64,000 nt of DNA, from contig JAYWIR010000023.1 in the NCBI GenBank assembly GCA_036172245.1, forward strand, positions 186,001 to 250,000, read 5' to 3'. Under the pieces are notes generated by a model, which saw nothing but the letters and a program-made list of their open reading frames with translations, did not search any database and was not told where the DNA came from. Positions 15,547 through 63,502 of the stretch are shown here, in pieces. Source of the stretch: Raillietiella orientalis. Taxonomy: Eukaryota. Within the stretch, counting starts at the first letter, position 1, and each line of letters begins with the position of its first letter. The position numbers and the translations under genes are program-made.

Positions 15547-15735
15547 CCAACTGGGGCAGTTGCGGATGGACCTCGAGGGCATCCTGCGAAGGATGACCCT
15601 CCTCCCAGTGGACTGTGATCCCTTACCGGCCCTCCAAACTCTTTTTGTTTTTCTTATCTTTGTTTTTATTTTTTGTTTTCTCCCCCATCCCCTTCCACTG
15701 CCGAGGAGAGTCACACCGGGCTGCATCCCGGTGTG
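15547..15735 (+). mobile_element. Family A LINE 3'-end fragment, inverted relative to its neighbours
   Basis: QLGQLRMDLEGILRRM plus a T-rich 3' UTR closely matching 20310-20495. Confidence 0.88.
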
Positions 15736-31486: not shown

Positions 31487-32157
31487 CAAGGAGCCAGAGA
31501 CATTAGATACTAAGGTTCTGGATGAAATATATCTGTTACTATATGATTTGTAATTCCTTTGTTTCTTTCACTGATGAAGTGTACTATCCATCTATCTGAA
31601 CTCATCTTCTCGTAGTTGGGGTCCATGTTTGCAAAAATTATGACATGTAGACAGCTGAACATCTCTACATGTCCTTGGTATTTTGTGGAGCATAGCATTC
31701 CATTTTTGATGGTCTCTATCCGTAGTTTATGATTTCTTGGGAATCTTTCGTTAAGTCTAAGATAACTATTTTCTGTCCTGAATACATGTATGCAGCATCA
31801 CATTTTCTACAGTTTGTAAGGTAAAGTGCATCATATTTCAGGTATGTGTGCTTGGCCATCGTAGTCTTTCCTGAGTAACCTTGGTAATCCGTGAACCAGT
31901 GTATGTCTCGTTCATTCGGTTCGTTGTTGATTATTTCAAGAAGATTTAGTTGCCACTGTTGAAGGTTTTTTCCAGCCATTGGGTCAGCTCTGTTGTATTT
32001 AGTGAATCTAATAGTGTCGTTTATGAATTGTCTATGTTAATCGTAAATTTCAGTTTTTCTTTCCATAGCCAATGTTCAGTTTTTCCTTCCTGAATCTGAA
32101 ATGTTGTATCTGAAAGATTGTTTGTTAGTATTAGTTTGTTTATTCTTACTTACTTAC
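31487..32157 (-). pseudogene. rep: Endogenous CRESS-DNA virus Rep fragment (intron plus SF3 helicase exon), EVE2
   Basis: IHWFTDYQGYSGKTT (Walker A), IVILDLTK (Walker B), KNGMLCSTKY, HVIIFAN (motif C) and SDRW (Arg finger). AT-rich island with frameshifts and a stop. Coding stop at 31510. Confidence 0.92.
32110..32157 (-). other. 48-nt spliceosomal intron of EVE2 Rep
   Basis: GTAAGT donor, TACTAAC branch site (32124-32130), TTTCAG acceptor. The downstream exon aligns with EVE1 Rep exon 2. Confidence 0.8.
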
Positions 32158-34139
32158 CTTCTGCAACAACCGCCCGCTGAAGGACGTCATCGTGCAGCCC
32201 ACCACGTGTGCGTAGACGCAAAGAACCTCCCTAGCTGCGGTACTGCCTTCCCTCTGGGAGTAGCTGGGCAGTAACCAGTCGGCCAAATGGTCAGTTGCAA
32301 AATCAGTCAGAAGACGACGGAACTAGGTGGTGAGACTACGGTCCAGCACAGAACTACGAAGAGGGGAGTAAGTGTTGTGTATAAGACATGCTAGGGAAAG
32401 GGTTATGGATGGGAGTGGAAGAGAGATGAGAATGGGTCAGGGTCTGTTGAGACCCCAAGTGCCCCGCCGAAAAAACTGTTGCGCTGGAGTGAGCTGCTGG
32501 GAATCCCACAGGGAGACCTCGAGTAGCCCCCAGCGCTGAAGAACAAGACCTACACATGTATGTTTATTTTTTATAAAAAAACATGTCAGCGTGATGACGT
32601 GATAAATCGAGCGGATCATCCCACCAAAGGAGTCCCCTCTCCCGGAAACGAGGACTGACGCCGTCCACCGACACGCTCGTCTTGAAGCCGTCAGGGAGTT
32701 TCTCGACTGCTCAAACGGACAAAAGGTCCGTGCGAGCAACGGTGATTGGGTTCGGTGGGAGGTAGAAGGGACCCAGAAGAACACCGGAGAATTTGGAATC
32801 GGGGAGGAACATCTTCCATACGGGATTTTTGTGCCAAGGGTCCACTTTTTAGTCATCTTTTTTGCTCCATCCGCACCGCCAAAAACTGTTTGCTGCCTTC
32901 GTAGGATCGCGGCGATGCCGCATACTGGACTTCTGCGTGTACGAGGAACGTCGAAACCTCATGTACATTAGAGACCAGGAGAAATTTTTCTTCTACTTCT
33001 TGTTGTTCTTCTTCCTCTTCTACTTCTTTTCGTTCTTTTTCTTCTTCCTTTCTCAAAAAATGAATCTCATTGCTTCGTGGAGCAGATAATTCATGCGAGA
33101 GTCCCACGAGATTGGGAGTCTGGAACCCGACAGACAGTGTCCCTGAAGACACCATCATCTTGGCCAGCAGCTTACCGGTGGCCTGCCCTGGGACACCCGC
33201 CGCACCGCTCCGAGTGTTCGCTAAGGGCTCCAACTGAGCAGAAGGAACCTCCATGCCATCTGGGAGGACGGGGCATCCTCCGGGGTAGGACTCCAGGGCA
33301 GCCTGCAGCTCCGAAAGGACCACCCCGAGAGCTGCACGAGCCCACCATCGTCAGGAAGAGTCGCATCGAGGAAATTGGAAACGCAGGGAAGTGGGAAGCT
33401 CTGGGAGCCCCTACAGCCGCTTGCAGTTTGGCTCTCGCGTGAGATACGAGACCTAGTCGGGCACGTCTGACCACTCACGGAACCCTGGAAAGCGGGTTGG
33501 GTGGTCTCTCCTCCTGTTCCACCCACACCCACTCGGCATCGGCAGCTGCGGCGACCACCGTGGCAGCCGCTGCCCAACAGGAGCTACGTCCAATTGGCTT
33601 CGACCACCGGTCGCGTCGGGTTCGCCTCCCATCCGGACGATTCTCTGCCACGTGCGAGCCGCGGTATGCATCAAAGCAGGAGTGAATGACCACTGTCCTC
33701 CCGCCTGCGACCCCCATCGCCTATAATGTGGAGGGCTATGGGAGAGCCCGATTAGTATGTGAGTTGCAAGGGAGCCTTCGGACGACTACGGGCAGACAAA
33801 ACCTCAACCCCATGCCGGTCACACCCAGTCCTCATCCGACGCACGCTCCTAGGAACCACGATGCCTCCCCATGAAGTCGGCCTATTCTGTTCCCTAGTCA
33901 TTTGTCTATCCATTGGCTCTCTTCCTCCTCCCCCTTCCCTCCTCCCTAGTTCTGTCCCTAGCGCCTTTTCTGTAAGATCCGAGCAACTGTCAGCCTAGGA
34001 TGATAGAAATTCTTTGGAGTTCTCTTGTTTTCGCCGCATTCCTTCGACTTTTTTTGGGGGGAGGGGGTCTCTGATTGCTGAAGAACCGTTCATCTCCTTA
34101 GGAGTGCTCAGGAAGCCCTTTAACACTGTCCACGCCACC

Positions 34140-36599: not shown

Positions 36600-37560
36600 G
36601 CCCCCGTCCAGGATGAGCTGCGCTAGCATTGCAGTTCCTCGCGCACGCGCGCACCTCGCGAATACCACGCTCAGCACCCGTTTCGACGGCGTCTACCGAG
36701 TGGACCAGTTGGGCTCGAGTGGCCCCGTGCGGTCGATCCCTCAGTGGCGAACACCCCGCGCACCACAGGGCGCGCACACCGAACGGACTCTGGGGTGAGC
36801 TGCTGGGAATCCCACAGGGAGACCTCGAGTAGCCCCCAGCGCTGAAGAACAAGACCCTCACCCTGAATAGTGGCAGGAGTCGGCACTACTGCTGTTGCAC
36901 TGGGGCATACCGTGCAACGCTCTCTATCTCACTGGACCCGGGGTCTGTGGACTCCAACTGCTACAGGTGCGGGAAACGGAAATTCCTCCCCTCCCGCACC
37001 TGCTTGTAGACCGTGTTGCCCTCCAGTCCCTGTGGTTGCGTTTCGCAACGGCCCTTGGTGCACCGACGGACAATCCCAGGGACGTTACGAAGCGCTTCTT
37101 CGTGCGCGATGCTCTTTCGTCTGTCGCATCCCCAGCAGCTCTTTGCTGCCCACGCAGGATTGTGAAGGCCTGGAGCGACGCCATTGGAGGAGGACGGCGC
37201 GATATGAACGCCATCTGCCCTTCGCCCTTTGCTTCCTGCGGACGGCAGCAAGATGGCCCCACCTGGGGCATACTCGGATGGAACTGGGACGGCATCCTGG
37301 AAAGGATGCAGAGGACGCTCTCCAGCAAACAGCGAGCCCTTCCCGTGGCCCCCAGATTTTTCCTTTTTTTATTGATTTTCATTTTTATTTCATTTTTGTT
37401 TGCCCCCTCCCCCTCTCCTGCCGAATAGAACCTCGCCGGCCTGTGTGCTGGTCACTCGGCAGGTTCCGCGCATTTTCGGACGACTTAGGGCCGATGGCCC
37501 TGAACACGTATGTTTATTATTTTTTATAATAAACGTCCCGGCGTTACCGGGTGTTAACCA
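36600..37560 (+). mobile_element. Family A LINE 3' end with 3' UTR
   Basis: WGELLGIPQGDLE*, WQESALLLLHWGIPCN, LPHLLVD, and a UTR ending AATAAACGTCCCGGCGTTACCGGGTG. Confidence 0.88.
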
Positions 37561-37929
37561 AAGGTGTCGACTGCCTCCCGCCTCCGCACTCACGAGCTGA
37601 CGCAGCGACACGAAGTCATGTTCCGACAGAAATGCCACTAATGCCAACAGGTATCCGTGCCTTTTCGTCCTTTGGAGTAGTCATATCCGGCGGCGAAAAG
37701 CAGGATGAGGCGTTCAGAGACATGCCAGGCACACATCTGTGGCGACCGCGCGGGAGTGGGGATGCTGACCCCTTGCAGCCAACTGCCAGCCTGAGGATGG
37801 AGCGCACGGGAAGGTTCCAACGTTTTTTTCGCCGCCGCCGGACGGATCTTCGGAACCGCATCTGAAGCTCGATTCGCTCCGGAGCCGATATTCTTGGTCC
37901 AGCATCCCGACGAGGAGGTCCTCTGAATG

Positions 37930-38397
37930 GGCCTCATTCCAAACCTTCATTCCAAACTCCTCGCCCATATTTCCTATAGTTAAGCCTAAAGACAACGGCT
38001 CTATCTTCACAGCACAGCCTTTCACTCGCACATATCTATAATACTTCGCCAAACCATCCAAATTACATATTTTCAACAAGTCTGACACAGCAATCTCTGA
38101 TTCTAAATAACAATACATCCAGGAACAATTCACGTGATCTCCATCTGCAGTTCGCAAAGAAGAGTAATGCTCAGCACCTTCCGCTACATCACGAGCTACC
38201 ACACGTGTTGTACGGCCTATACGGTAACGAGGAGACCTGAACCGTCTCCACTTACGACGACGATTATTCCAAAGACGCCGACGCTTAAACGTACTATATC
38301 CAACCCCGCGCCTAGACAAACGACGACGCTTCACGCCATACGATGATCCTCCACGCTTTCTCTTCCGAGAACGAGAAGCGCGAGGTGCCACTGCCAT
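37930..38397 (-). pseudogene. cap: Endogenous CRESS-DNA virus capsid protein, C-terminally truncated (EVE1)
   Basis: Very Arg-rich N-terminus (RSRKRKR...RRRKWRRFRSPRYR), then YYRYVRVKGCAVKIEP, like the Y.YYRI..V.V.F.P strand of CRESS capsids. Divergent from Rep. The ORF formally runs on to 37714 in non-viral sequence. Confidence 0.88.
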
Positions 38398-38472
38398 TCC
38401 ACTGCTTGACAGCGTACTGGCGACCTAAGTCAACCCCCCTCCCTTTTTAAGTGTGGCTGGTGGGACACGCCC

Positions 38473-38505
38473 ACCCGACCTCATCAGCCTTCCACGAGGT
38501 CGGGT
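38473..38505. repeat. Second intergenic hairpin (10-bp stem, 13-nt loop)
   Basis: ACCCGACCTC (38473-38482) pairs with GAGGTCGGGT (38496-38505). Confidence 0.85.
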
Positions 38506-38644
38506 TACGCCACGCACTTCCCACGTGGACAGCAACAGCCTGTTCCGCGTTCCAAAGTCTTCCACGATTGCGGACAAAAACCAGACACTAAAAATATCAC
38601 TTACAACATATCGGAATTTCCCAAGGTTTTGCGTTGTCAGCGAA

Positions 38645-38679
38645 ATGCAATCTGGGTAATACCATTTACCAGATTGCAT
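38645..38679 (-). promoter_or_regulatory. Rolling-circle replication origin stem-loop with nonamer TGGTATTAC
   Basis: Perfect 11-bp stem ATGCAATCTGG/CCAGATTGCAT. The 13-nt loop reads TAAATGGTATTAC on the minus strand (nonamer 38656-38664). Confidence 0.92.
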
Positions 38680-38698
38680 CTTCTGCGCAGTTACGCAC

Positions 38699-38705
38699 TA
38701 TAAAT
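38699..38705 (+). promoter_or_regulatory. TATA box for Rep
   Basis: TATAAAT about 65 nt upstream of ACCATG (38768). Confidence 0.6.
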
Positions 38706-38767
38706 ACCAACACACAGACAACCAAAGCCAAGTCTTACCTACAGTGAATTACCTACAAGCAGAGACC

Positions 38768-39106
38768 ATGCCGTACGCACTGTTTTTCAATCGGTGCTTC
38801 ACACTGTGTAACTTCTCCGAAGAAGACTTGAAAGACATCAAGAACTGGTGCCGTGCCAACTGCGGCTTCGCCTGCATTGGACAAGAAACAGCAAAAACAG
38901 GGACACCACATCTCCGAGGATACTTCCAACTTAAAGAGCCACGCACCATGCCAGGACTCAAAAGAAAACCATTCCATGAAACTCACTTAGAAAAACCAAG
39001 AGGATCAGCACAGAGCAACCTACGGTACTGCACAAAGGAGGATAAACAAGCATGGACATACGGCAAAATCCACGAAGCTAACGAACCCACCGACTACCAA
39101 GACCTA
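38768..39106 (+). CDS. rep: CRESS-DNA virus Rep exon 1 (HUH endonuclease), EVE1
   Basis: Motif I CFTLCN, motif II TPHLRGY, motif III YCTKED; no stops. Confidence 0.93.
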
Positions 39107-39154
39107 GTAAGCCATAAACCTTTAACAACAACATTAGAAATCCTCTTCCACTAG
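39107..39154 (+). other. 48-nt phase-0 spliceosomal intron in EVE1 Rep
   Basis: GTAAGC donor, branch-like CTTTAAC, pyrimidine run, CTAG acceptor. The acceptor TAG is the only in-frame stop in Rep. Confidence 0.82.
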
Positions 39155-39613
39155 ATACTCCAACTCATCGAGGATGGTGCAGACGAACACTTCATCCTCA
39201 AAAATCACACAAAGTTCTACAGCAAGAATATTAACTTCGTAAAAGAATGCTTCAGACTTACCAGAAGCAGAGCACACCCCAAACCCTTAACTAATCTCCA
39301 ACTAAGAAGCTGGCAACTCGACATACTTAAACTCATACGACATAAACCAGACAACCGCAAGATCCACTGGTTTTATGACCCTATCGGAGGAATAGGCAAA
39401 ACAACCATGGCTAAATTCCTTTACTTAAAAAAGGGTGCCATATATATGCATTCGTGCAAAAAAGCAGACGCCGCCCACATATACAACGGCGAGAGGATCA
39501 TCGTTGTCGACCTCACAAGGGACAATCAAGAACTGGTGCGATACGGCTTCATAGAAACCATGAAAAACGGCATCATGTTCGACAGCAAATACCAAGGATC
39601 AATCAAATACAGT
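39155..39613 (+). CDS. rep: CRESS-DNA virus Rep exon 2 (SF3 helicase), truncated before motif C
   Basis: IHWFYDPIGGIGKTT (Walker A), IIVVDLTR (Walker B), YGFIETMKNGIMFDSKY. The frame stays open into GC-rich flank up to 39928. Confidence 0.92.
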
Positions 39614-40559
39614 CCCGCAGGGCTTTCCTCGGGAAGCCAGCGGTCCTTCTACGCGCCGCGTAGGGAGAGGGAGAAACGAAAAGCGGAAGTCAGAGGAGGG
39701 GCAGCAAAAGCGTTCTACGCCGCGGACCGCTCCGGTAAGAATCTGCTACAGACGAACGTGCTGAGGTCATCCCGCCTCCCGAAAACCGCCGCAGGATCAC
39801 CCTTTGCCGCGCAGAAGTCTTCCATAGGCCGGCATAGGAAGTTCAGAGCATTGGCCAATGGGAACCCTCAGACGAGTCCAAATCGGTGGCATCTCAAGCA
39901 AAACTACCCTTTGCCGGCACCGACGTAATCTGATGACACCGAGGTGTTTCTTTCCCAAAGGAACGTAGGCAAACAAAGTAGGGAGTGAACCATTTGCTTC
40001 TAGGAGTTCAAGGGGGAATAAACCATCGACCCACAGGTTGGCAACAGGAAGGACAAAGAGGGTTGTAAGGGTCACATTATGGATGGCAAACAAACAAAAA
40101 AAAAAGGAAGAAACAAATAAGCGAGAGAGGGAGAAGGATCAACGGAGATGCCGGCAGCATCCTCCTCAGCTTCCGGTTTCCCATTTCTGATCGTTGAAGA
40201 GGCGGGGCGTACGGCCTTCGATTCTTGCTGACGTACTTCCTGCGTGTACCAGGAAATCCTTCCCACGCAATCGAGCCGGCGAGACATCCGGGCTGCAGGC
40301 GAGAGCCCTCCACTAGGGAAGCAGCGCCGCGGCGACTTCTTGAGGGTGTCCTCCGGACTCCGGGGGTCGCACAGCAGACGTCGGACAGGAGATCCGTCGA
40401 CCATTCCCTTCTGTTACTCCTGCTACAGAGCACGAGATCTCCCACTATCCCACCATGCCCCCTGTCGTTTCTCTCTCATAGGGAGGACAGCACTACGGCT
40501 AGGGAGCTGGCGGAGTCCAAACCACATCTTCTGGTCCTGTCGCACTTCCTCAACAAACG

Positions 40560-43770: not shown

Positions 43771-46169
43771 TGAAAGGAAAATAGCGAAGACAGAAAAAGA
43801 ACCCAAAAGGATTTATGTATCTGCACTGGGGAGTTCCCAGTGCCATCGGCTTCGGCACTTCGTTTCCAAGGGATTTGCGTCCCCAAAGCGTTTAGCGTGT
43901 GGGACGATCGAGTCGTTCCCAAGCCTGTTGTCGGACTCCAAGAACTGTGGAGGAGGTCGTCTTCAGCGCTCCTGCTCCCGGAAACACCTGGACGAGGTTA
44001 GGTTTCCGCCACAAAAAGTAGGCGGTCGCGAATTTTGAGTTTCCCGCCGGACCCTTTATTCAGGATCTCCGCTCTGGGAGATCATAAAGGATCCATCCTC
44101 CGCCACCGCGAACACCTTGGAACCCATGTAGTTGAACGGGCGTTTAGGGAAACAGAGAGTGAGCGTGGCGCGTCTGTGGAGACTCCACGCGCCTCTCGCG
44201 CTAAGTATGAGGGTCACGAGATCCGCCCTATCTTCAGCCACGAGGTCGCAATGCTCGGCCCAAATCATTTACAGCCACCTGGAAGCCAACGTGACTTACC
44301 TTGTAGAGCAGAGCAGGATTGAAACCCGGGGATACGTAAGCCATCATCTCTACGTGTTCGGGCGGAGCTCTTTCGTTGGCTACTACCGCCGCCATGTCAC
44401 TCCACAACCTGGAAGCAACTGGAGAGATGGCCATTGCGACTCGTTTGCGGGCAGCAACAACGGGCTGAGATCGGAAGCATTCTCGACACCGTTCTCCTTG
44501 AGACCAGCACAAAATGCAGGCGATCCCCCCTCTCGACTTCCTCCAAATGGGGGCACTTCGCTGCAGTCCCCACGGAGGCCGCTGCCACGCGGGTGGATTC
44601 CTGTCACTGCGCATGCAACTCGAAAACGTGACCAGCAGCAGTCACGGTAGAGAGGATGCAAAGAATCGTCTCTGCCACGGCTTCTTGGGGGAGTTCACCT
44701 CGCGCGGAAGGCCAGAATGGCCAGAATCGCCGCAGCAAGTCCTCGGCCATGCCCCCGAGTGCAGCAGCGCTGGAGTCGGCTTTCGGCACGGCTCTTGGAG
44801 TGACAGCGCAGTCGAAGAAACAGTTGCGAGAAAGACTCGCTTGTTTCCGCACTTGGAACAGTTCGGCGATGAGGCACTCCCGGAAACGGGGTGTCGGCGC
44901 TGGAAAAGAGCACTACCAGCTCCTGTCTCCACTTCAAAGGGAGCACCGAGGAAGAATGGTAAGTAAGCGTGACAGGAGAAGTGTCGAAAAGCATCCGAAA
45001 CGAAGGATCTGACACCCCAAGTCTCCCTTTCTTTTGTTATTTATCTATTGTCCCTTTCCCTTCCTCTCCGGACATCTTGTGCGACAGAGCTGTGTGTCGG
45101 TGATCCGTCCGGTGAAATTCTTCCTGTTTGCCCAGTTCCCAGCATGTTTGTTAATTTTTACAGTAATCCCCCCCGCCGCGGCCGGGTGAACACGCACGTG
45201 CCATTCTATGGTGAGTTGGCGTTCCGGCAGAGCTGTGAACCGCGCAGCAACACTCAAAGCACACGGTGCAAGCGAGTCCTACCGCCATTCTTCGAGTGGC
45301 AAAACCTCTCTGGCGCCCCATTTGCACGGTTTCGTGGAAGTACCACAGAACATCGCTGCTCGCGCTCCACTGCTGTAAGCGCATCGCTGCTCGCTTTGCA
45401 TGACCATTGGTTACTCGCCACGTAGAGACTGCTGATGTGAAACCTCCCAATTTCAGAGAGTCATGGCGATCTCGGGGGAGACAGGCAGGCAGAAGCAGTG
45501 GCGCCTTCCAAGAGCAATGCTCTTCCCGACCGGTGCAGCAGTGATTCGAAGGAGGCGGAATGAGAAGGAGGCAAGCAGTTTTCCACGCCCTAAGAGAGCT
45601 GCTGCTCCTCCAGGAAGGTAGGCAGGCACAGATGCCATGTGCCGCCTCTTCGTAGGCTCGTTCGTAGGCTCAGCTTCGTTCGTAGGCTTGTCAGCTGGCA
45701 ATCCACGATCGGAAGAACTAGGAAAAGCTCCTTCTCGTCGGGACACCCTCCCAACTGCGCAACTGTTTCACCGAGACTCCGGACTCTTGAAGATCCACAG
45801 AGCCGACTATCGACTCGAGGAGATTCCCATGGGAGTCACGACACCTCGGTTGAGATCACCCTGTTTGGAGGCCTTTACAAAGGTGTAGAAAAGGGGCACG
45901 CGCACCTCACGACTCAGTGAGGCCATATCTTTGACCAGATCTCAGTGAAGTAGCAGACACGGTTGTGCTCTGCAAAAAGGGAGAAGAGACAGGACAACGA
46001 GCTATCTCGAGGGGCACCGTAGACCAAGAAAGAAGGGCAGCTCTATCACTTCCGCTCCTGTGAACATACTGCCCAATGTTCATAGGAGCTCCCTTGTCTG
46101 CGTGTCTTTTCTTTCTTCCTCCCTTCCCCTTTTTAACTTTTGAAGCCGTGAGGCAGCGCCCATCCAGCC

Positions 46170-49100
46170 GGCATGCACATAGAGTCAACCAGCGAGGGAC
46201 AAAGGAATACCATGGATGTAGCGATCTCGATAAGGAACGAGCTCGCTCACACCATCCTGGAAACCTTCTGCTCCATGACGGGAGGAATCGTCGGCGCACG
46301 AATTTCCTGGTCCGCAAATGTTCACTGGTTCTTGGTGAACGTATGCGGACTGCACCACCAAAAGCATCAGTGCGCGGAGGCGCTCCACGGAACACTCCGG
46401 CAAAATGTCGCACCGAAGGAGATTGTGATCATCGTGGGGGATTTCAACATCCTGAATGAAATCATTCATTCCCGAGACGCCAGAGGCAGGGCAGCGTATC
46501 GGCGGCTGTCCGACAAGTTCAGGCTGCTGTGGCTAACAGCCAGCCACAAGCCTATCGACCACATCCTCTACAGCTCCGATATAAGGAACCGTATCCACGG
46601 GTTTCGTGACACGCCCACCTTGCTGTCCGATCACCCATTGGTGAGGTTTTCCCTGAGGACTGAAAACCCTCGGCGAAAGAAGGCCACAAGGGCGGCACTC
46701 ATCAGCATGCCTGCCTGGTTCGAAACGCTACCCTGCCATCAAGAAGTTACAGAGACGACCAGCATCCGCAGAGTCACTGACTGGGATAGCCTGAAACACT
46801 GAGTTCACCTGTTCTGCAACATGCAACTCGAAAACAACTCGAAACATGCAGTTCAAGATGCAGTTCGGTGACAAGAGACCGAGGCAGGAAGCGTACCGGG
46901 AGCTGCACATCCAAAATCGCTCCCTCTCGAAGTACTGGGAACAATGCGAAGGTCGGTACGTCTTCCAAAATGTAAAAGGGGAAATCGACGTGCTGGAGAA
47001 GAAGAATCTGGCAACAGACATCTTCTGGATCCAATACGATGGCCACAGTCGGCACACGTCGGAGGACATCGCGGACGCCTTCCAGAGGCATTACGTGAAG
47101 CACTTCCGATGAAGATATCTGTGCCCGACTAATCAAGGAATTTTTTTGCGACACCTGGAAAGACGAACGAGTGAAAACCATCGGAATATGCTTGAAGAGG
47201 AAATCTCCGAAGAAGAAGTGAAAGCTGCGTTTGTGGAACTTCGGCGTTTGTGGCAGCGAGCCCTGATAGTGTCCACATCTCTCACTATCAGCGGTACTTG
47301 CATGCCTACCGACGTTTGTTTCACTAGCTAACGCTCTGCATCCGACAAGAAGGACGACTACCTGCATCCTTCTACGAGGAGGATGAGATTGTTGTCGAAA
47401 GGAGGTAACCTGACTAAGGTTACCCAATAAAGGCCAACCACAATCCTGAACAGCGATGCCAAGTGGTTAGCAAAGATCTGGGTTAACCGCTTAGGCAAGG
47501 TCATGCCGAAGCTCATCTCTCCCGTCCAGACATGCGCAGTGTCCGGACGCCACATGTCGGACAATGTCAAGTGTGCTCAGGCTACCATTGGTCTCAGACG
47601 ATATATCGGTGAGAACTTAGTACTGTGTTTCACTGACATGTAGAAAGCTTTCAAGACGGTGGACCATGGGATGCTGTTGAAGATTCTAGGAAGACTGGGC
47701 CTCCCGGAACAATTCAACAACTTCGTAAAGATGATATTGGAAGAGCAACACTTTCGGATAAAGATAAATGGGGAAGAGACGGCAGCCATCCGGATGGAAC
47801 GAGTCCTCCAAGGCGATGCTCTTAGTCCGATGCTGTTTGTCAATGCTGTTTGTCATGTCCTCTCATCATTCATAGAGAGAAGTGGGCACCTCCGCGGAAT
47901 CACTGTCGACAATCAACGGCTCACCCATCTGGCTTACACGGATGATCTTCTCAAAGGGGAGAGAGGTCAACGTACGTTTCTGGATGTACTGGAGCTTATT
48001 GAAGAAGGATTGGGCTTAAAAATCAACGCCCAGAAAAGCCAACTTTTGCCCGTCGGAATCCTGGATCTCTCCATACTCATAGAGGAAGGATTCCGAACGA
48101 TGGACAATGCGAAGTACCTGGGTGTCCACATTGGCGACAATTCATCGTCCCAACTATTGTGGAAGGAAATCCTGGGGAAAACAGCGAAAGAAGGAGCGAA
48201 GTATACCCGTTTGGACTTTAACATGAAGAAGAGGGCCAATCTTTGGAACGGAGTACTCCTTCCGAAGATACTCTTTGGAGAGGCCTTCTACAGAATGTTC
48301 AAAGATACCAAGAGGGAGGTAGAAAAGCTTCAAAGGAAAACTCTATGGGGAAGATACCAACCAAGAGTCCTCCTCAAACCACTGTGTCATCCTAAGGAGG
48401 AAGGCAGTACCGGGATGAAGTCGCTTGCACACGCTGTGGACACCTTGGACGTGCGACAACTCCTGGACATGTTGGAAAACTGGGAAGACTGGCCGTATGC
48501 AGCGCATAGGGCTTACTCGTTGTTGATAAATAACTCGAGAGGACTGATGACTGCGCTGCTCGGCAGATAGGTGAATGGGTCATCATCGACCCAATCTGGA
48601 GACGAAAGCAACAGCTGGTACACAAGCACCAGCTGAAGATCATACCAAGGAGCAAGGAACTCTGGCAGGAGGAATCCATCCTGGCGATCCCGTGGATGCT
48701 CCCGGTACCTCCGGATACGAGGAGCTGGATCCACCAGCGGTCCAAGGTTACTTTGCAAGCAGCTCAAGTATGGAGACGACGAGAGTACTTTCACTACTCC
48801 CGAATATCCCGATAAATTGATAGGATAGCTGGAAGATTCACCCACAGAACCCGCGAAGTGTGGAAAAAACACAACAACTTCGTGTGGTCCAGGGTAACAA
48901 AGAAAAAACTGTGCCAACTAATAGTTGAAGAGGACAAAGACACCAGTGCCCTCCAAGAAGCCGCCGATAGCCACGGAAGTGCTGGGATAAACCTGTTGGC
49001 TATTGGAACGACGCTCTGGAGGAGGAACTTGTCACCGGACACACAGGATAACCTCCTGATGTTTTATCATGGAGGAATCCTGTGCGGGACAACCATGAAG

Positions 49101-49670: not shown

Positions 49671-51936
49671 CCACCCCTTGTGGGACTTGGGAAAAATAGT
49701 CAACCAGCTTTCACTGCCCCTCGAAATAATGCACGATAGGAACTCCATGGAGAGCACCTACCCCCTTCGGGGAGTTCCAAGCAGGTCTTCTCTGTTGCTC
49801 TAGATCGTGCTCTCTGAAATGAATGTCCCCTCCATTGCCTGCTCTTCGTCAGGGCGTAAGGGACCTCAGCTGCTGAGGAACGGAGGAAGGCTGCAGAAGA
49901 GTACGTCCAGACAAGCCATTTCGCCTGTCTTCATGACATCCGCTCTAGAGCGCCCCTTGCAGGAGTGTCTGCAGCAAAGGGCGGTCTCTTTGAAGTCTTC
50001 CGGAAAAGCGAATCCCACTGGCCGAAAAACAGATCAGCTGAACACATTGCCCTCTCGGGAACAGTCCCCGAGTGTCCGAATAGGGAGAACCACCAATGCG
50101 CAGATGCGACTCGAAGACCACCTCGGGGTGGTCTTAAAAGGAGTGACTCCGGAGAAACAGAGGAGCATTTCTCAGGACCGAAAGAGGGCACGGCTTTCGT
50201 GGCCAAATACCTTCAAGATCGTCCACCATGACCTATATTCTCATCCTTGAGAAGTGCCAAGACGGTTTACTCGAGCTAGCGGAAAGAATCACGAGACGAC
50301 AGATCCGCCATGAAGGGCCGGACTCCCAGACTAACAGGAGCTTTCGGATAACAAAAACAGGAGCGAGTGGAAAGGAGAGAGCCTTTCCTTCCTTCCTGTC
50401 CATGTTCTTTCTGGAAAGGGCCCCTTCTGGAGAAGAGTTCGCCTCGCCCTTCCTTGGAGTCTTGCTCCAACTGCCGACCCAGCAGCTGCGAAGCAGCACC
50501 GGAAGATCGGGGAGCATCCGACTATGGCCTCCAGCCGTCCCGATAAAGTGGATGTGAAACATGGCAAGGCATGGACGCACCCCGTTATCGCACCTCGCGT
50601 GATCTAGCGGGACACCGCAGTGTCCCCTCCTCTCACCATCTCAGGGGATGAACCAGCAGCGCCAAACAGCTGCCGAGAGCACTAGCGCTTGAAGCAGCCC
50701 GATGAGGCAGACGAGTAACGCAGCCTACGACGAGAGATCGGAAATCGAGCAGTTGAAAATATGGTCGGAAGGATGCCGCCACAACCGCCAAATTCACGCT
50801 TTTTGAAGGCATACTCCACTTCTCCAGCGTCAGCACCATCTCCGAGATCCGGTGATTCCGAGAGGCTACACTCAAGACCGCTGTCCTGTTGACCAGACCT
50901 CGTTGAGGATAGGGAAGCTATCGATGGGATGTGCCAACGAGACATGCACATGACAAAGGCACTGCAGGCAGTGCGCAGGAAGTGAGCTATGCTACAAGAA
51001 ACACCAAGGACATAACCGGATTTGCGTCGTACGCCGAGCGAATCCTTCTGTTCGTTCTCGGCTATCCCGGACAAGATCCTAATGGATAAGTTTCCGAGAA
51101 CAAAGACAAAGTTTCCCGCCGAAAACTGAGAGCTTACAAGGAGAGCCTATGCTTCTCAGGGATGAGTCTACTGAGGAAAGCTACCTGAGACCAAGAACCA
51201 CAGGCACGTCCCGGCGTTACCAGGTGATAATGGCAGGTCGCTCATGGTTGCCTATCCTCGCTCACCGAGAAACACCACGCATCCCTAGCAGTAATGGTAG
51301 TTTAACGAATATGAATGAACAATCGAGCGAAACGGGCACTTTCCAAAGGTGGCTCTCGCGCACCTTGGAAGGCATTTAAAGCAGCACTTGTGTGTGGGGG
51401 GGAGGTCACATGGGCAATCGGCATCCTGAGAAAATGAGATAGTGATCTCAACACTCTCCTATCTTCTCGAGGAACGGACAGACAAAGCTGTAAAGTAAAG
51501 TTCAGAGAGAAGTACCAGGAATACGCAAACCAGCAGGCAATTTATTTCCAACCTATAAAAGATGATTTACACGAAATAACTCCGCATATTTCTTGCCAGC
51601 AGAGATCGGAGCAGCTGTAGAGCAAGTCAAAAGTTTGCACTCAGGGACGAAATAACCAGATGCACAAAAACTATTGCCCCAAGTGGAACCCAACAAATCA
51701 GATATGCCAATGCTAGGTTTGTAAGTGCAATTTTGAAAACAACCATACGGGGATTCAAATCGATATAATAAAAACCATAAAAAACTAATGAGAAAACATA
51801 AAAACCTACTTTGGGCCTGCAAAAAATTACAATCCGTTTGTGAAAACCGCTGCAATTGTGCATTTCTAATGCAAATCTGCATTTGGAACCAAAATTCTGG
51901 CTAGCTACCAGTAAATTAAAGTAAAAAAGAGCAGCA

Positions 51937-53312
51937 TTAACTGTCATATTTTTTCCTTTTGTTTTCTACAAAATACACATCGACGCATTCGTCCTGCTCC
52001 ATGAATAAGCTACTTGGGGTATCCTCTGGTGATAACTCCTCTCCATCAAAATGGAAACGCAACTGATCCATTGGAACATGTTGATGTTCCGCATAAAGTG
52101 CAAACAAGATATGGAATGGATCATCCCTTTTGATATGCATCGTTACAGTGTCCTTTCTTTTGCTTGTCTGCATCTGCAGCCTGATCATGTTGGTATCATG
52201 GATCTCATCGTGCAATGATGAAGCACTGCAGACATTCCCTGATGACTGAGCAACATATGCTTCTACAAAAGCTGTGTAGCTCCTGTAGATAGATAGAGGT
52301 CTCACCAATAACATCTGTAACAGACAGCTGGAGGTGATAGGGAGTATCTCTGGGATACAAGCATCTATCTCTCACACTCAGGTTTATGTGAGATGGATCC
52401 ACCTGCATCAATTCAGCAAGATGCTGCTGCAGCACAGCCATGCCTTGAAACTGTTAATATGATATAATGATTACAGTGAGTAACTACTCTTACTTGTTTC
52501 ATGGGAAACCTGATGATTTTTCCCTGAAACTTGACTTTCAGCAAAATCATCTTATTATTTACTGGACTCTGCGCAGGATCACTGTCATCCTGAAACACAA
52601 CTGTAATCTCTCAATGAAACAGAAAACGTAAACTAAACACACAAGCACTTGCTCCTCTTGCATGTATTCTATGGCCTTCTTCTGCAGCTGCAAACTTCTC
52701 AAAATAGAGCTGACTTCTTCATTGAACGTCACTGTATTCGTACTTTTTTTGTTCTCAAAATCAACTGCTGGCATGTCATCATCACTAATAACAATATGAT
52801 TTAGAAAAAGTACATGATCTTGGGCTTTAAATACGTGCTCATGATCATGATTACACCCAGTATTTAACAGTTTCATTATTCATAGTATAGTCAGATGACT
52901 AAATGACCACAATTTCAAGACCAGTATTTATTGCACAATCAAAAGGAGCAAAATTACACTAAAATATAAAATGAAAATTGGTATGAAAAAACGGCCATCA
53001 AATGTGTCAGCACATTCATCTATATAAAATCTCAGATGCTTAAGACACTATGGATCTATAACTTGGGCAAAAATGCAACAAAAGGTCTATAACCTAGATT
53101 TTTAATATAAACATCAACATGAAAATCCCCATGGATTTTGAAATTTCAACGTACAATAAAATCTAAAACTTACTTTTCGGAATCACTGCTCAATGAGATC
53201 ACACAAATGTCACTCTTGGCCTTTGTTTTCGCATTTTTTTCTTTGTTGCAGATTTGAGTTTCATGTGCATCCTTGGGTTGGCTATTAGCAATTTCATCAT
53301 AGCATGGGATGT
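51937..53312 (-). CDS. Rad60/Esc2/NIP45 (NFATC2IP)-like protein with two SUMO-like domains, 3' exons
   Basis: Phase-compatible exons ~53312-53174, 52784-52649, 52589-52494, 52450-52306 and 52262-51937. SLD1 ends ...PRDTPYHLQLSVTDVIE; SLD2 has LRFHFDGEELSPEDTPSSLFMEQDECVDV. SIM-like VISLSSDSE upstream. 5' exons not resolved. Minus-strand AATAAA at 51541-51546. Confidence 0.82.
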
Positions 53313-56300
53313 CTGCAGCTTTGTTTGTTTCAAACATGAAGAAAAAATAGTTCAACATACGAGCTTTTATATTTCCTATACGGAATTCTCAGAATAAAGA
53401 ATGTTTAACACGAAAAATATTAAATATTATATACAACATTTCTCGGATAACAAATAACTGAAATTAATTTCGGGCAGGAAATAACATTTTGGACTATTAC
53501 AAGCATATTTCATGGCTGCAGCTGTTTCAAATTGATTCAGTGGAATCTGATTTATCTTTGCTAATTTTCTGAATTCACACTCCCTCTTGTAAGCATAACT
53601 GAATATAAATGTTTAGTATTTCAATAATATTTTAAAATGACAAACACAAGACACATCTATACAAACAGCAGTGCCTTCTTTGTAAATGAGGAATTTCTAG
53701 AATCCTATTCATACTATTTCTTTTACTATTTCAAATTCTAATCATGAGTTGGCATGACTTATCATTGCTGTAAGAGTTCTATTTTTATCTCAATTACTAA
53801 ACATTTTCTACTCTTGATCATGAATATTCAAAAGCATCAAGAGGCATAAGACCTATGTGAACATTTTTTTTCCCTTTATATACATAAGAAAATCTATACA
53901 CCAAATCATAGTGAGCTTTAAAATCAGACATATACACATGTCTTCATCAAAACTGTCACCTGAATTCTTAAGATCAAGGCAATCTCAGTAACTGACTAGT
54001 TAATGAACTTCATTCTGTATATTACAAATAATTCTATTTCCATTCTAGATCTAAAAATTAGTCCTCACACTTATTTGCTACATCTGGACCGAACAAATTC
54101 TGTTTGTGAATATTTAAATACTCCTGTTGCAAGAGAATAGTGTTCAGTGTGTTCACAAAAATGAGATTTCTAATAAATTTCTAAAATGAATACCATAGTT
54201 TTTAGAAAATTTATTGTATCTACAAAGTTTCGCATTATTCTTGATTAATTGGAATGCAATACCTATGGTAGTCCATAAAACTCATGCCCTATGACAACTT
54301 TACTTCCAGAACACTTGAAAAAAAGTTCACATTCAATTTCATAAAATTTCAATTTCGTTCATTATTATGTTTACTCATTGTATACTCATTTACAATACAA
54401 TACCCCCTTAATTGGTAAGCTTCAAAGAGAACACAGGTGCTTTATTCTTGATGTTGTTGCAGGATATAATCCATTATTAGATTTTTAAATAAAAAAAATA
54501 ATAAATGTCTGTCTGTCACTTTTTAAAGCCTAGCTTGCAATCTTTTGCAAAAGAATGCTCAAACACAAACATACTTAAGTTAACCCTGCTGTTGAGTATT
54601 ATGACTTACAATTAAGCTTTCAAAAAAACAAGCAAGAAAAGCAATAAAGTGGCTGTCGAATTTGCTATAGTGAGAAATGCAAATATAGAATCAGAATACA
54701 TAAAAGTGCCCATTCCACAAAATCAATGACACAACTTAAAGCACTTCTGACATTTGTCAGCACTAACAATACCAATCAACAGGCAAACAGACAAACATTT
54801 CTGCCCTATTGCACATACAGTATATAAACAGCGAAATTCTGACACAAAGTTGACAATTTGTAAATCTTGTACCAGAATTTTAATGTTACAAAGTTGATAA
54901 TTTGTATTATTTCCTAAATTAATATGATCACATGGAAATTATCTTACCCATTACTATGATGACAATGGACTACCATAGGTATTGTATTCCAATTATCTTA
55001 CCAAATTAATCACGCATACATTATACGTAACTTTCGAATATTCCAAACATTCCAAACGATATTATTATGGTTGTCATATTTAGTCACTAACAAATACTAT
55101 GGGGTTTGCCAGGATAGAAAACTATGGATGAACTAAAAATCTTACATCGATTAAAAAACGATAGAAATATAAAGTTGTCATTTCTAAGCACCTGATCTCT
55201 GGAAATCTCAATTTGGCAATGCACATTACAGGAATTCTCATCAATACAATTAATGCTCACAATGTGCCATTTTTTTCAAATCTTGCAATCATCCTTTTTT
55301 GGTACTGGAAGTTTTATTGCCAAAAGTTTATAAAAGTGTACCTGGGAGCTCGATGCTAATACATGTACTATCCAAAGAAACATTAGAAGAAAAAATAGAA
55401 AAATCCAATTAAAAAACCTTCCCTTACATAAAAATTTACAGAACATGGTAATCCCTTGTTGGGAAGAATTTACAGAAATTAATTCACATGCATAATTGGT
55501 TTGTAAGCTTCACTGATAACTTTAAAGATGTAACTGAGTTTTAAGGAACTGTAGATTTACTGTAATCCTATCATAAACATTAGGTAAAATCATGGTCTTT
55601 GTTGTTAAAACGAGGTAAAATGGGCCAATAAAAAATAAATTTCTCTTTGAATCTCTTTGGAAGGGTGGACAAGCTTCGCTTTAAAATTTGACAGCGTTTG
55701 CTTTGGCTTAAATCTTTGAATCAAAGGATACACTAAAAATATAAATATCACAAAAATAAGGAATATGTATTCTTTCAAAACCAAAGATACAAACAACAAA
55801 GTCCGAACTATAAACAGCAAGATTACTTTGAAGTAACTGCAATTAGACCTAAAGCACTTCGCTTTCAAAGTTTAAATTTTCTCATTTCAGATTTATCAAG
55901 AAAGCTATTCCTGATGGCAAAACAAATCAGTACTGGCAGAATGTATGCACGATAAACAGGAAAAAGAAAATACAATTAATGATCTCATCGAATTCAGAAA
56001 ATGAAATTCTCTGAAAGGCTTCATCTTTTACCAGTCATGGCCAGATTTCCGATTCCATAAATATTCTTCTCCGTGGAAAATGCATTTAATTTACAAATAT
56101 TCAATTCCTTATGAAGTTCAAACTCCTTTCCAATGCGCTTTAAAAGGCCACGTCTTGTCTTTAATTTACATCCAACTAGATCATCTTTGTTATCTGGTAA
56201 CACAATTGTATGGCTCATATTTTAAACCGGGTGTAACGTTCATTTTAAAATGCGTACACTCCAGCACTGTTGTTGCATGATGTTCTATCATAGAACTTCG

Positions 56301-59300
56301 AGGCATCTTGAACTGCACGGTTGCCAAGATTGCTTAAAACTAATGTGAGTTTTCTCTGGAAAACAATTTCTGCAATGAGAAATTGTTTTCTAGATATGCA
56401 AGCAGGAAGAAGTGAATATTTAGGAAGAACGTTTATAAATGAATATTTATAACACCTTTTAAAGTATGTTTGCATAAAAATATAAGTGCTTCAGCTCTAG
56501 CTTAATTTTGAATTACTGTAATAGAATTCCCTATTTCTAAATTACTTAGTTTCATTGTTTTTCAACAAAAAACTATAAAAATTAATGATTTTGAAAAGTC
56601 ATATGCACCGTCTAGTAGTACCAACTATTGATTTTTTTTGTACTTTCAATAGGTCGATCTGCTTGCCCATTTCCTGTATCAGTACTGTTGATTGCACACT
56701 AATGTTATTATATTGCTTGTGCATTTCAGCGCTGTTATCTACACCCTGTGATACCGATTTTCGATAAAGTACACAGAACGATTCAGCCTGCATCAAATGA
56801 CACAACGTCGAAGGCATTTTAATTTTGTGGGTTTCATGCTAATTCTGATTTCACAAATGCTTTTCACAACGCAGAAGATTTTGGTTTCATTCATTCTTTT
56901 CAAGCTAAAATTACTAAGATTAGCTATACGAATTCGATACTGCAAAAAATATATATATATATGCAAACACACAGCAGTATTTCCTATTTGAAAGTCAAAT
57001 ATGTGTATGGAACATTTCTATAAGCATGTACAAAGATTATCAATAGCTGTTTTGGAAATCGCTAGCGCTAATTGATGTAGATGCACGTAAAGGAAGCACT
57101 AAAAGTTTCACAAATCCTGAAAAATCGTGCGGTGCGTGTCGACGGGAATACAAGAAAAACAAAATGTATTCTTATGTTTGCCTACAAGCACATCTAAGAT
57201 TTTACTAACCTTATGTAAACCGGTCGTAAATGAAATGCAGGGGCACCGCACTCGAGTTTCTAAAACCAAATGCAAAAAAGTCTGTCTTTGAACACATCAC
57301 AGTATGAACAAGAACGAACAGTATCAATAATTTTCAACATATCTGATGAAAATTATTGATTTTAAAAATATGTCTGTCCATTTTGTTAGCATAAATAATC
57401 ACAATGCTGCTTAAATGTTACTTGAGATTTTTATGCATAAGGGAAATAAAGAGAAATTTTAGAGCTGAAGGTTAGAACGAAATTTTTTTGTTTTTATAAC
57501 ATATGGTCAAAATCAATTACTTCGTAGTTCTGTGTAATTTTTACTTTACATTTAAGTATTTTGATCTTTGGTCTTTAAAGTTTACGATATTTATTATGAA
57601 TCAATGTCAACCGACGATTATAGCAAAAGCATTTCTTTTCTATTGAAACTGAATGTAAAAGATGGCGATAAATGATAACTAATCAATAGGTTGATAAAAT
57701 GCATTATAAAAAGGAAATCAATTAAGCGTTTTGAGGTGCAAAAAACTTATCTTCCTTTCCACTAAACTGAGGCTGTTGCTCTTTAGTAAACAAATGTGTT
57801 TTCCGTAAAAGTAGAAAAACAGGCAAGTAAATTCGGAAATCAAGTTTGTAACCATTTCTTCCTACTGCCAAAGAAAAAGAACCTCGAACAGCATTTGCGA
57901 TGGAGACCTACTTATTCTACAAGCATTCATTATGAGATGTCACCTAATCTCTTGTAAGATGATCGAATCTTAGCTTTGGTACAATTATTTCTTCGTCACA
58001 TACATCTGCAACTGTTTCGGAGGGTTTTTGTTTTTTTTTTTTGTTTGCTGTTTGCGAAATCGGGCAATCCGTTTGGCAGAAATCTACTCTTGACTTTTCT
58101 GAGTACTCTCCATCATTCCCTGAGAAAACCGATTCTTACATTTTTCGAAAATCACGCATTCCGTTCGTGTAGGGTGTTTATTTGCATACTCTGAAAACCG
58201 AATCTTTTCCTTTGGTGAAGAAAATCTTCTCGAAACCCGAGAATTCAACGCTGCTCTGAAACGCCTTCTACATTCCTGAACGCAAATACGAAATTTAGAA
58301 ACCACTCACATTTCGAGTGATGCAAAAGCGTCCCCTGTAATGACATTTGCAGCTATTCCCATGAGTGTGCAGAGCAATAAGCAAGCAGGAATCGGAAAAC
58401 GGTTTCCACCTTTTCCAAGCCATTTACTTTATGAAAGATGGCCATAAAAAAGCTTGCGCGGAATTTTTACCGTAGCACCCGGAAGGAATTTGTGAAAATC
58501 TGTCTCCGAATGGTGAAATGCAAACGGACGAAAGTGCACAATAGGAAAGTTCTCTCCCAGCAGCTACTGAATGAAGAAGAAATTCGTTCTCGCCTCTGAC
58601 CTGCAGGAAACAAAATAAGCAAAGAGAAATAGCTTCAAAGGATGCCTCAGGCCAATGAAGAATCTGAATCTGCCCAACGCTGTTGCAAACATTCATCAAG
58701 ACAATTCATTGAGGTAATGTACAGAGGTAACGTATTTACGCCATTTTCGACGAAGGCTATATTTACTTTTAATTATTGTGAGCGTATTTTACGTATCTCC
58801 GAGTCCGTTTGAAAGATGCAACAGCGAAATCCTTTGTAGCAAGTATTTAATTTCTACCCCATTTATAGAGCAGACATGAAGCAACGTTACGTAGAGAACC
58901 GGGGGAAAATAGGATTCTGAAATTTATTTTGCTATAGCAAGAGTTCAGCTCAGTTCGCATCTGTAATCATGAACAGGATGGAGAAAAGGGACAGCTCTGC
59001 AGATAATGACGGTGTACAAACCGGTGATGACAAGCAGCTGGAGTCCAGCGACTGCAAACCACCAGCAAACCACGAGGCTTTGCAGCTTGGGCACCATTTG
59101 ATCTTGTGACGCGTTGAGAAAGCTTCTTTGTGTACGTCCATTCACATAAAGGAGCCATTTTTTCGCACTGACATTCCTATTGCTGGCGATAGTTCCTTTT
59201 CATGCAGAACTAGTGAAAATCCACAGAACTACCTGCTCCAGGACCACTACATCAAGTCTACGCTTTGTGGACGCGGCGACGAAAGCGTTCGAAGTTCGAG

Positions 59301-62551: not shown

Positions 62552-63502
<951 letters not shown>

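Follow-up and report, generated by a model that had tools for sequence, protein, structure and literature searches.

In viruses of the mastrevirus and genomovirus type, RepA is made from the unspliced and Rep from the spliced mRNA. In porcine circovirus (PCV), the full Rep is translated from the unspliced message and splicing shifts the reading frame; the PCV donor presumably lies just after the nuclease domain, near the position with which the donor described below aligns. The splice variant Rep' of the porcine circovirus rep gene (extracts of PMC13618890) also appears as an isoform in the PDB (8h56). As far as the excerpted text of the source extends, a spliced rep occurs in four geminivirus genera (mastrevirus, becurtovirus, capulavirus and grablovirus) and in the genomoviruses, and introns are predicted in some Circoviridae at a place other than the geminivirus/genomovirus location (10.1101/687855). 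Predicted GT-AG introns of 56, 96, 98, 100 and 166 bp are given for cyclovirus Reps in sections of four papers (PMC8622408, PMC3810929, PMC8471302, PMC3684831). The Rep of the cyclovirus Mon-58 is listed as join(1771-1611, 1512-840) in a portion of one of these (PMC8471302), from which a first exon of 161 nt and an intron after codon 53, inside the nuclease domain, would follow. Excerpts of arthropod and bird virome papers suggest that intron-interrupted Reps are routinely flagged in such studies (PMC6186406, PMC11463337). Spliced CRESS Reps are already known, and what is new here is the site of the candidate intron and the lineage in which it is found; a literature search of partial coverage turned up no description of an endogenous CRESS Rep interrupted by an intron.

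The window, by which the whole 64,000-nt stretch of Raillietiella orientalis DNA that was analysed is meant, consists of eukaryotic DNA with a GC content of 55-62% and dispersed repeats. Its ORFs include a LINE-type reverse transcriptase and endonuclease and a polyubiquitin gene, and an AT-rich island extends over 51-59 kb. The Rfam and tRNA scans of the whole window found nothing, and Pfam searches with 42 ORFs at 48.5-64 kb revealed no additional host gene. A look-up with a LINE reverse transcriptase led to clusters of Basidiomycota and of Chordata and is not informative about the host. Rep homology is carried by two AT-richer patches, EVE1 and EVE2, both of which are bounded on either side by host-type DNA, as endogenous elements are. 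The viral genes end at the borders, which are marked by GC steps (~37930 and 39616 for EVE1, 32157 and ~31500 for EVE2), and the flanks hold dispersed repeats and LINE-type reverse transcriptase and endonuclease ORFs. The reading favoured here, to which a probability of roughly 0.7 is assigned, is that EVE1 derives from the DNA-level integration of most of a CRESS virus genome and that the 48 nt interrupting its Rep at 39107-39154 are an intron which the virus already carried in rep.

EVE1 and its interrupted Rep gene

On its sequence features, EVE1 (~37930-39616) is an integrated piece of a CRESS-DNA virus, in which a capsid fragment, an origin hairpin, a TATA box and a Rep gene stand in the expected order. 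The Cap fragment (37930-38397, minus strand) is an ORF with its first ATG at 38397 and a left limit approximated from the GC step, where GC drops from ~0.6 to ~0.4 near 37900-37950. It has an arginine-rich N-terminus, lacks its C-terminal side and matches Pfam Circo_capsid weakly, under the cut-off (E 0.04, 14.6 bits). An origin-like hairpin with a 10-bp stem and a 13-nt loop occupies 38646-38678 on the minus strand; the DNA fold of 38625-38705 on that strand has an energy of -17.9 kcal/mol (z -4.94), and none of 200 shuffles was as stable. The loop reads TAAATGGTATTAC on the minus strand, within which TGGTATTAC differs by one change from NAGTATTAC, and the Rep-sense strand holds TAATACCAT. 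A TATAAA motif at 38699-38704 (plus strand), 69 nt 5' of the Rep ATG, is by its position a putative promoter element.

The first Rep exon (38768-39106, plus strand) comprises 113 codons from the ATG at 38768 and encodes the HUH nuclease domain, with the rolling-circle motifs I, II and III in the form of CFTLCNF, PHLRGY and YCTKE and a match to Pfam PF02407 (Viral_Rep) at E 3.9e-13 and 49.9 bits (cut-off 26). Residues 18-120 of the PCV2 Rep align with residues 10-111 of the EVE1 query, and PCV2 Rep nuclease-domain constructs are 115 residues long. The second exon (39155-39616, plus strand) encodes the linker domain and a putative SF3 helicase with the Walker A motif GGIGKTT. This part matches the profile over positions 117-273, and the Pfam RNA_helicase family at E 0.0032 and 18.4 bits, under the 21.5 cut-off. 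Its homology stops at residue 154, the insertion end removing motif C, and homology and low GC end together at ~39616, beside a GC step at ~39615. In 113+154 codons the Rep frame shows no frameshift and a single stop. Because the antisense Cap, the origin and the unspliced candidate intron are all included, integration would have taken place at the DNA level, and since both genes are cut off at the insertion ends the EVE1 copy is regarded as a fossil.

The 48 nt at 39107-39154 (plus strand) have the form GTAAGC...CTTTAAC...TCCTCTTCCACTAG. The first-pass annotation of this DNA had described them as a GTAAGC...CTAG intron whose TAG acceptor is the apparent stop of the Rep and whose removal fuses DYQDL|ILQLIEDG in frame, and the sequence agrees in each respect. 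The stretch is a multiple of three in length, in phase 0 and in frame with both flanks (...DYQDL and ILQLIEDG...), and its last three nucleotides, at 39152-39154, are the sole stop in the Rep frame. The single defect of the gene thus coincides with the final codon of the additional stretch, as would be expected of an intron. From the ATG at 38768 to this TAG there are 128 codons, the same count as had been given for a nuclease-only product. At the 3' end a pyrimidine run is followed by CTAG (CCACTAG), and CTTTAAC, 27 nt upstream in the stretch, is taken to fit the branch consensus YNYURAY. The donor pattern GTRAG occurs once in the 863-nt Rep region (38768-39630), at 39107; the base preceding it is A, not the usual G. 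The GC content of the stretch is 0.354, compared with 0.475 in exon 1 and 0.427 in exon 2. When the local sequence was shuffled, a bare in-frame GT..AG pair spanning 30-70 nt around the stop was common (7040/20000 shuffles), a GTRAG donor in frame with AG at the stop appeared in 208/20000 and a GTAAG donor in 167/20000.

At 48 nt, the stretch is in the size range (43-59 nt) spanned by three intron candidates of the host, which sit in one gene on the minus strand. These are a 59-nt GT..AG stretch (52648-52590) that joins open frames, a 43-nt stretch GTAAGA...TTAACAG (52493-52451) that joins two open frames in phase 0, and a 43-nt stretch GTGAGA...TTGTAG (52305-52263), downstream of which the last exon matches Rad60-SLD (E 1e-13). 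The two 43-nt GT..AG stretches are those to which attention had been drawn at 52.3-52.5 kb; the exon joins of this gene were made by eye, without homology validation, Pfam giving no support for the short exons. The stretch at 39107-39154 is probably a genuine spliceosomal intron of the virus, situated where the nuclease domain meets the linker.

The intron-like stretch of EVE2

EVE2 contains a homologue of the second Rep exon (32109-31510, minus strand), recognised by tblastn, three-frame reading and the profile, which comprises the linker, the helicase and a natural C-terminus with stop codon and which keeps ...IIFANMDP... in its helicase half. In-frame stops and no fewer than two frameshifts mark it as a pseudogene, and two different frames are needed to cover profile positions 159-250 and 252-304. 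The helicases of EVE1 and EVE2, previously estimated by eye as roughly half identical, share 44% identity over 118 aa by tblastn (E 8e-32) and 49% in a MAFFT pair alignment. A tblastn search of the window with exon 1 found no such exon for EVE2 (next best match E 0.09).

Directly before the exon-2 homologue stands a 48-nt stretch (32157-32110, minus strand) of the form GTAAGTAAGTAAG...TACTAAC...TCTTTCAG, and the earlier description of it as GTAAGT...TACTAAC...TTTCAG is accurate. The composite string GTAAG..TACTAAC..YAG occurs once in the 64 kb, with 0.02 occurrences expected, and it ends where Rep homology starts. None of the three frames stays open beyond nt 13 of the stretch, so that an unspliced message would be affected in the same way as by the TAG of EVE1. 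A second TTTCAG lies 14 nt beyond the acceptor (32096), and its use would give phase 0. One border of EVE2 coincides precisely with the putative 5' splice site and the other lies ~10 nt beyond the stop codon, so that breakage, recombination or capture of the fragment may have occurred at the splice site and not at a random position. An origin of EVE2 by retroposition, from either a lariat or a spliced RNA, was considered and ruled out, as there is no poly(A) tail.

It had also been claimed that the two Reps share an intron at the same position. As regards the acceptors this probably holds, the codon spanning the first acceptor of EVE2 (32110) being profile position 115 and the first exon-2 codon of EVE1 position 116, an agreement within 2 nt on a weak alignment (hmmsearch E 0.04, six sequences). 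It does not extend to the donor side, where EVE2 has no exon 1 for comparison, nor to the phase, which is 0 in EVE1 and 1 at the first acceptor of EVE2, a 2-nt difference. BLASTP produced no alignment between the frame-1 ORF of EVE2 and the 35 residues with which EVE1 exon 2 begins; the G codon and the WQL motif are 131 nt vs 135 nt apart (own count), collinear with the significant downstream match. Likewise, the reading IQH/QIQEG proposed for the start of the EVE2 exon is right in that an exon homologue is found there, but it needs a 2-nt frame slip just past the acceptor; an indel at this point is plausible because EVE2 has other frameshifts. The interiors of the two stretches are no more alike than chance, 2849/5000 shuffles reaching the observed alignment score, in keeping with the dissimilarity remarked upon before. 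Since EVE2 is without exon 1, its phase is 2 nt off and the local alignment is weak, the sharing of an intron is given as probable only; in terms of its string, length and place, the EVE2 stretch is likely to be a homologous viral intron.

The missing exon 1, the phase difference, the unrelated interiors and a position taken from a weak alignment would also be accounted for if the EVE1 intron were real and EVE2 were a 5'-truncated Rep beside or inside a host exon-intron junction, in which case the donor and perhaps much of the stretch would be of host origin. Such a junction is favoured by the upstream flank of EVE2, which has a high GC content (0.54) and meets the stretch in the textbook donor context CAGAAG|GTAAGT. 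The 58-codon ORF in this flank, however, has no homologue in a near-length search (31-102 residues) and no repeat copy in the window, and the GC content of the stretch itself is viral-like at 0.25, against 0.54-0.60 in the flanks, with the step from ~0.65 falling at the donor G. A host junction would furthermore have to match the length of the EVE1 stretch, place its acceptor within 2 nt of that of EVE1 in the profile and supply the full donor/TACTAAC/acceptor string exactly here, where 0.02 are expected per window. This explanation of EVE2 deserves serious consideration and is nevertheless unlikely.

Linker length in homologous Reps

The EVE1 Rep, read through with X at the stop (query P0001), was searched against 1.84 billion representative proteins and returned 7683 Rep homologues at E<=1e-3, with a best identity of 41%. 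In a MAFFT alignment of P0001 with 151 homologues (P0002-P0152), almost every row is gapped across the 48-nt stretch. D109 of the xRxD motif and G137 of the next helix served as anchors, and both anchor columns are filled in 123/151 homologues. The spacing between them is 10 residues in 98 of these and 11 in 10, so that 108/123 homologues have 10-11; a further 13 have 12-15, and there is a single homologue each with 1 and with 27. In EVE1 the spacing amounts to 27 when the stretch is counted and to 11 when it is left out. The BLASTP alignment with P0004 has a gap of 17 residues at the stretch, and in a profile of 25 Reps, of which P0001 is itself one row, exon 1 ends at ~116 and exon 2 begins at 116/117, the two adjoining. 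Removal of the GT-AG stretch restores a frame that is collinear with the unspliced homologues. By these alignments the 16 codons are extra relative to homologous Reps. The first-pass annotation had reasoned that the TAG would be a nonsense mutation if homologous Reps encoded these residues continuously; spacing, BLASTP gap and profile agree that they are absent, and it follows that a plain nonsense mutation within normal codons does not account for the TAG. For annotation this carries a warning, in that the TAG of EVE1 should not be counted as a disabling mutation when the element is dated or classified.

The same alignment allows the proposal to be weighed that the 48 nt are coding, forming a lineage-specific 16-residue loop in which a single nonsense mutation occurred once the element had integrated, with the GT and AG there by coincidence. 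A stretch that is in frame and a multiple of three would suit a loop, linker length does vary, with spacings from 1 to 27, and one homologue (P0042, 1/123) equals the EVE1 read-through at 27, so that long linkers exist. The frequency of in-frame GT..AG pairs in the shuffles also allows for coincidence. EVE1, however, attains the spacing of the great majority of its homologues only without the stretch, the sole GTRAG of the Rep region starts it and the sole stop ends it, such a donor being rare in the shuffles, and a string resembling an intron stands at the corresponding place in EVE2. A coding loop is accordingly considered very improbable.

A second proposal is that the 48 nt arose after integration, as a small insertion or a host-created intron, and were never viral. 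No exogenous relative with this intron was found, the size agrees with that of the host intron candidates and CTAG stands at both ends of the stretch (39104-39107 and 39151-39154), all of which would be in line with a late origin. The two CTAG copies are 47 nt apart, not 48, and no further copy of the stretch was found within the window; a MITE-like insertion with target duplication was ruled out on these grounds. The undamaged state of the rest of the Rep frame implies that there was little time for such a change, a truncated EVE1 offers no obvious selection for the creation of an intron, and the divergent, independently integrated Rep of EVE2 has the same feature at the matching place. An origin after integration is likewise very unlikely. 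Decoding of the TAG as an amino acid in a variant genetic code, with no break in the frame, can be dismissed: part of one cyclovirus paper does invoke a non-standard code to find the Rep frame (PMC8622408), but there is one TAG in 291 Rep codons and none in the Cap frame, where a reassigned codon should recur, polyubiquitin and other host ORFs are open under the standard code, and 16 extra residues would be left unexplained.

In the favoured reading of a viral intron carried into the host genome, the virus would have transcribed rep from the TATA-containing intergenic region and the host spliceosome would have cut out the 48 nt, joining the exons in phase 0 to give the full Rep. By analogy with RepA and Rep, the unspliced message would end at the acceptor TAG and yield the 128-residue nuclease-only protein. 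The 48-nt stretch of EVE2 would probably be the counterpart of this intron, left by a related virus in a separate integration that is older and further decayed. A wider proposition, that an unsampled cyclovirus-like, non-circovirid CRESS lineage was active in the host nucleus, that the minimal in-frame intron of 48 nt, of a size with those of the host, predates the split between two viruses whose helicases are 44-49% identical and switched between nuclease-only and full Rep, and that EVE2 was possibly captured at a splice site, is speculative and doubtful.

Relatives and comparison with known spliced Reps

An intron at the exact EVE1 site was found in none of 80 related viral contigs (79 IMG/VR loci and L080), and the suggestion that the genomes of relatives might have GT-AG at this site was not borne out in this set, which includes no close relative. 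Among the 79 IMG/VR Rep loci, 57 cross the EVE1 site in one ORF and 20 are short-linker Reps in one ORF; of the remaining two, one has the N part only and the other, L033, is split elsewhere. The closest helicase match (L056, 41%) is continuous after removal of its 121-nt terminal repeat, and L080, obtained from viral contigs searched with the EVE1/EVE2 pair alignment, is a continuous short-linker Rep. A word-index search for close relatives with the read-through Rep returned only P0002, a distant short-linker Rep. Viral contigs searched with P0001 gave no close relative, the middle ORF of EVE2 searched against longer proteins gave no relative, and none of the 594 pattern hits that the EVE1/EVE2 pair alignment had among metagenome contigs was a relative. 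A further candidate intron was observed in another locus, L076, between motifs I and II.

The split Rep of L033, which is of circovirus type and 27% identical to that of EVE1, contains an in-frame stretch of 72 nt, GTATGT...TTAAAG, with a TAA inside. It belongs to a family of 15 loci, 13 of them with both Rep halves. The halves are in different frames in 12/13, L033 itself being the one locus with both in the same frame. A GT..AG stretch of 53-79 nt that joins the frames is present in 10/13 loci (L033 and 9/12 of the others), and none was found within the search span used in L081, L089 and L094. The site lies before the xRxDL motif, at profile ~108/109, in phase 1. On the strength of these sequences the L033-family intron is taken to be real and conserved in an exogenous lineage.

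For most CRESS-DNA viruses, to our knowledge, no host has been identified. A spliceosomal intron of host size in an integrated copy would be direct evidence for expression of the lineage in the nucleus of a eukaryote whose introns are very short, and EVE1 would tie the virus lineage to this host group. The Rep signature motifs of the Circoviridae, listed in an extract of one source as WWDGY, DDFYGW and DRYP (PMC3684831), are absent from EVE1 and from every EVE2 frame and occur in 0, 0 and 1, respectively, of the 151 nearest homologues; because they are missing, EVE1 is not placed in the Circoviridae.

The comparison with mastreviruses and genomoviruses that had been drawn at the outset is fair as an analogy, and the cycloviruses and the L033 family are closer precedents. 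Like the geminiviruses and genomoviruses, EVE1 has a GT-AG candidate intron inside a CRESS rep, so that translation without splicing would yield an N-terminal product that includes the nuclease, and translation after splicing the full Rep; unlike them, as far as a comparison by description goes, its nuclease is of the circovirus type (PF02407) and its intron is in frame and 48 nt long. With porcine circovirus it would share a spliced rep message of which one product has only the nuclease part in common, but in EVE1 it is the full Rep that would need splicing. The resemblance to cycloviruses lies in the genome layout. In both, Cap is on the strand of the nonanucleotide and Rep on the opposite strand, the ambisense arrangement and the hairpin with a NAGTATTAC-type loop being those by which Cyclovirus and the Circoviridae are recognised, and the EVE1 loop sequence TAATACCAT is near-identical to the TAATACTAT reported in the Rep sense for cycloviruses in parts of two papers (PMC3810929, PMC12481609). 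The intron positions differ, the EVE1 donor following nt 339 of rep (codon 113) and those of the cycloviruses Mon-58 and Tbat_H_103923 nt 161, according to a section of the description of both (PMC8471302). The L033 family shares with EVE1 a circovirus-type Rep and a short intron at the nuclease/linker boundary; its intron precedes that of EVE1 (116/117, phase 0) by ~8 codons and is of other lengths. The site in EVE1 would thus be the third intron position in a circovirus-type Rep, after codon ~54 of the cycloviruses and the site before xRxDL in the L033 family, and the three positions suggest repeated intron gain near the nuclease/linker boundary, where the choice of splicing can yield a nuclease-only protein.

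Extent and flanks of the two viral insertions

The second, decayed Rep piece, EVE2 (31500-32160, minus strand), consists of exactly 48 intron-like nucleotides followed by exon 2, ends approximately 10 nt beyond the stop codon and contains neither exon 1 nor a poly(A) tail. Both of its ends are marked by steps in GC content, and the 5' border is formed by a perfect CAGAAG/GTAAGT junction. A 67-nt stretch is found in the same orientation beside both EVE2 (32484-32550) and the integrated CRESS-DNA virus piece EVE1 (36790-36856), with 98.5% identity between the two, and is followed at both places by an AT-rich palindromic piece (32549-32587 and 37499-37537, respectively). On the EVE1 side one copy of a ~600-nt repeat family, which is represented at least six times in the window, intervenes between these two elements. 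CTAG is present at either end of the EVE1 intron (39104-39107 and 39151-39154; spacing 47 nt), a pairing which is probably due to chance.

Transposons and host genes around the insertions

Three LINE-type ORFs (13928-15622, minus strand; 46152-46802 and 47644-48570, both plus strand), which as a set match RVT_1, zf-RVT and endonuclease/exonuclease/phosphatase domains, show that the surroundings of the EVEs are rich in transposons. An AT-rich island (51000-59000; 30-44% GC) is embedded in DNA of 55-62% GC, and the composition of the EVEs is nearer to that of this island than to that of their own flanks. The island also harbours the sole recognisable short-intron gene, a Rad60-SLD-like gene (51937-52879, minus strand). 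A polyubiquitin gene at 62552-63502 (plus strand) encodes four ubiquitin repeats within a single open frame.

Rep relatives and their candidate introns

The top protein match of the read-through EVE1 Rep, P0003 (354 aa), lacks the nuclease domain and displays the domain order helicase, linker, helicase. It resembles a read-through across partial Rep copies arranged in tandem and is possibly derived from another endogenous array.

Among the IMG/VR viral contigs, the Rep halves of the L033 family (L033 and loci L081-L094) are encoded in different frames, nuclease versus helicase, in 12 of the 13 loci holding both halves. GT..AG candidates of 53-79 nt are positioned immediately upstream of the conserved xRxDL motif. 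The L033 intron itself (618-689) is 72 nt long, in frame and contains a TAA. In the Rep of another viral contig, L076, a candidate intron (GTAAGC...TTTAG; ~506-570) separates Rep motif I from the section of the nuclease domain that comes next, and the frame changes there. The EVE1 intron site lies some eight codons downstream of that in the L033 family.
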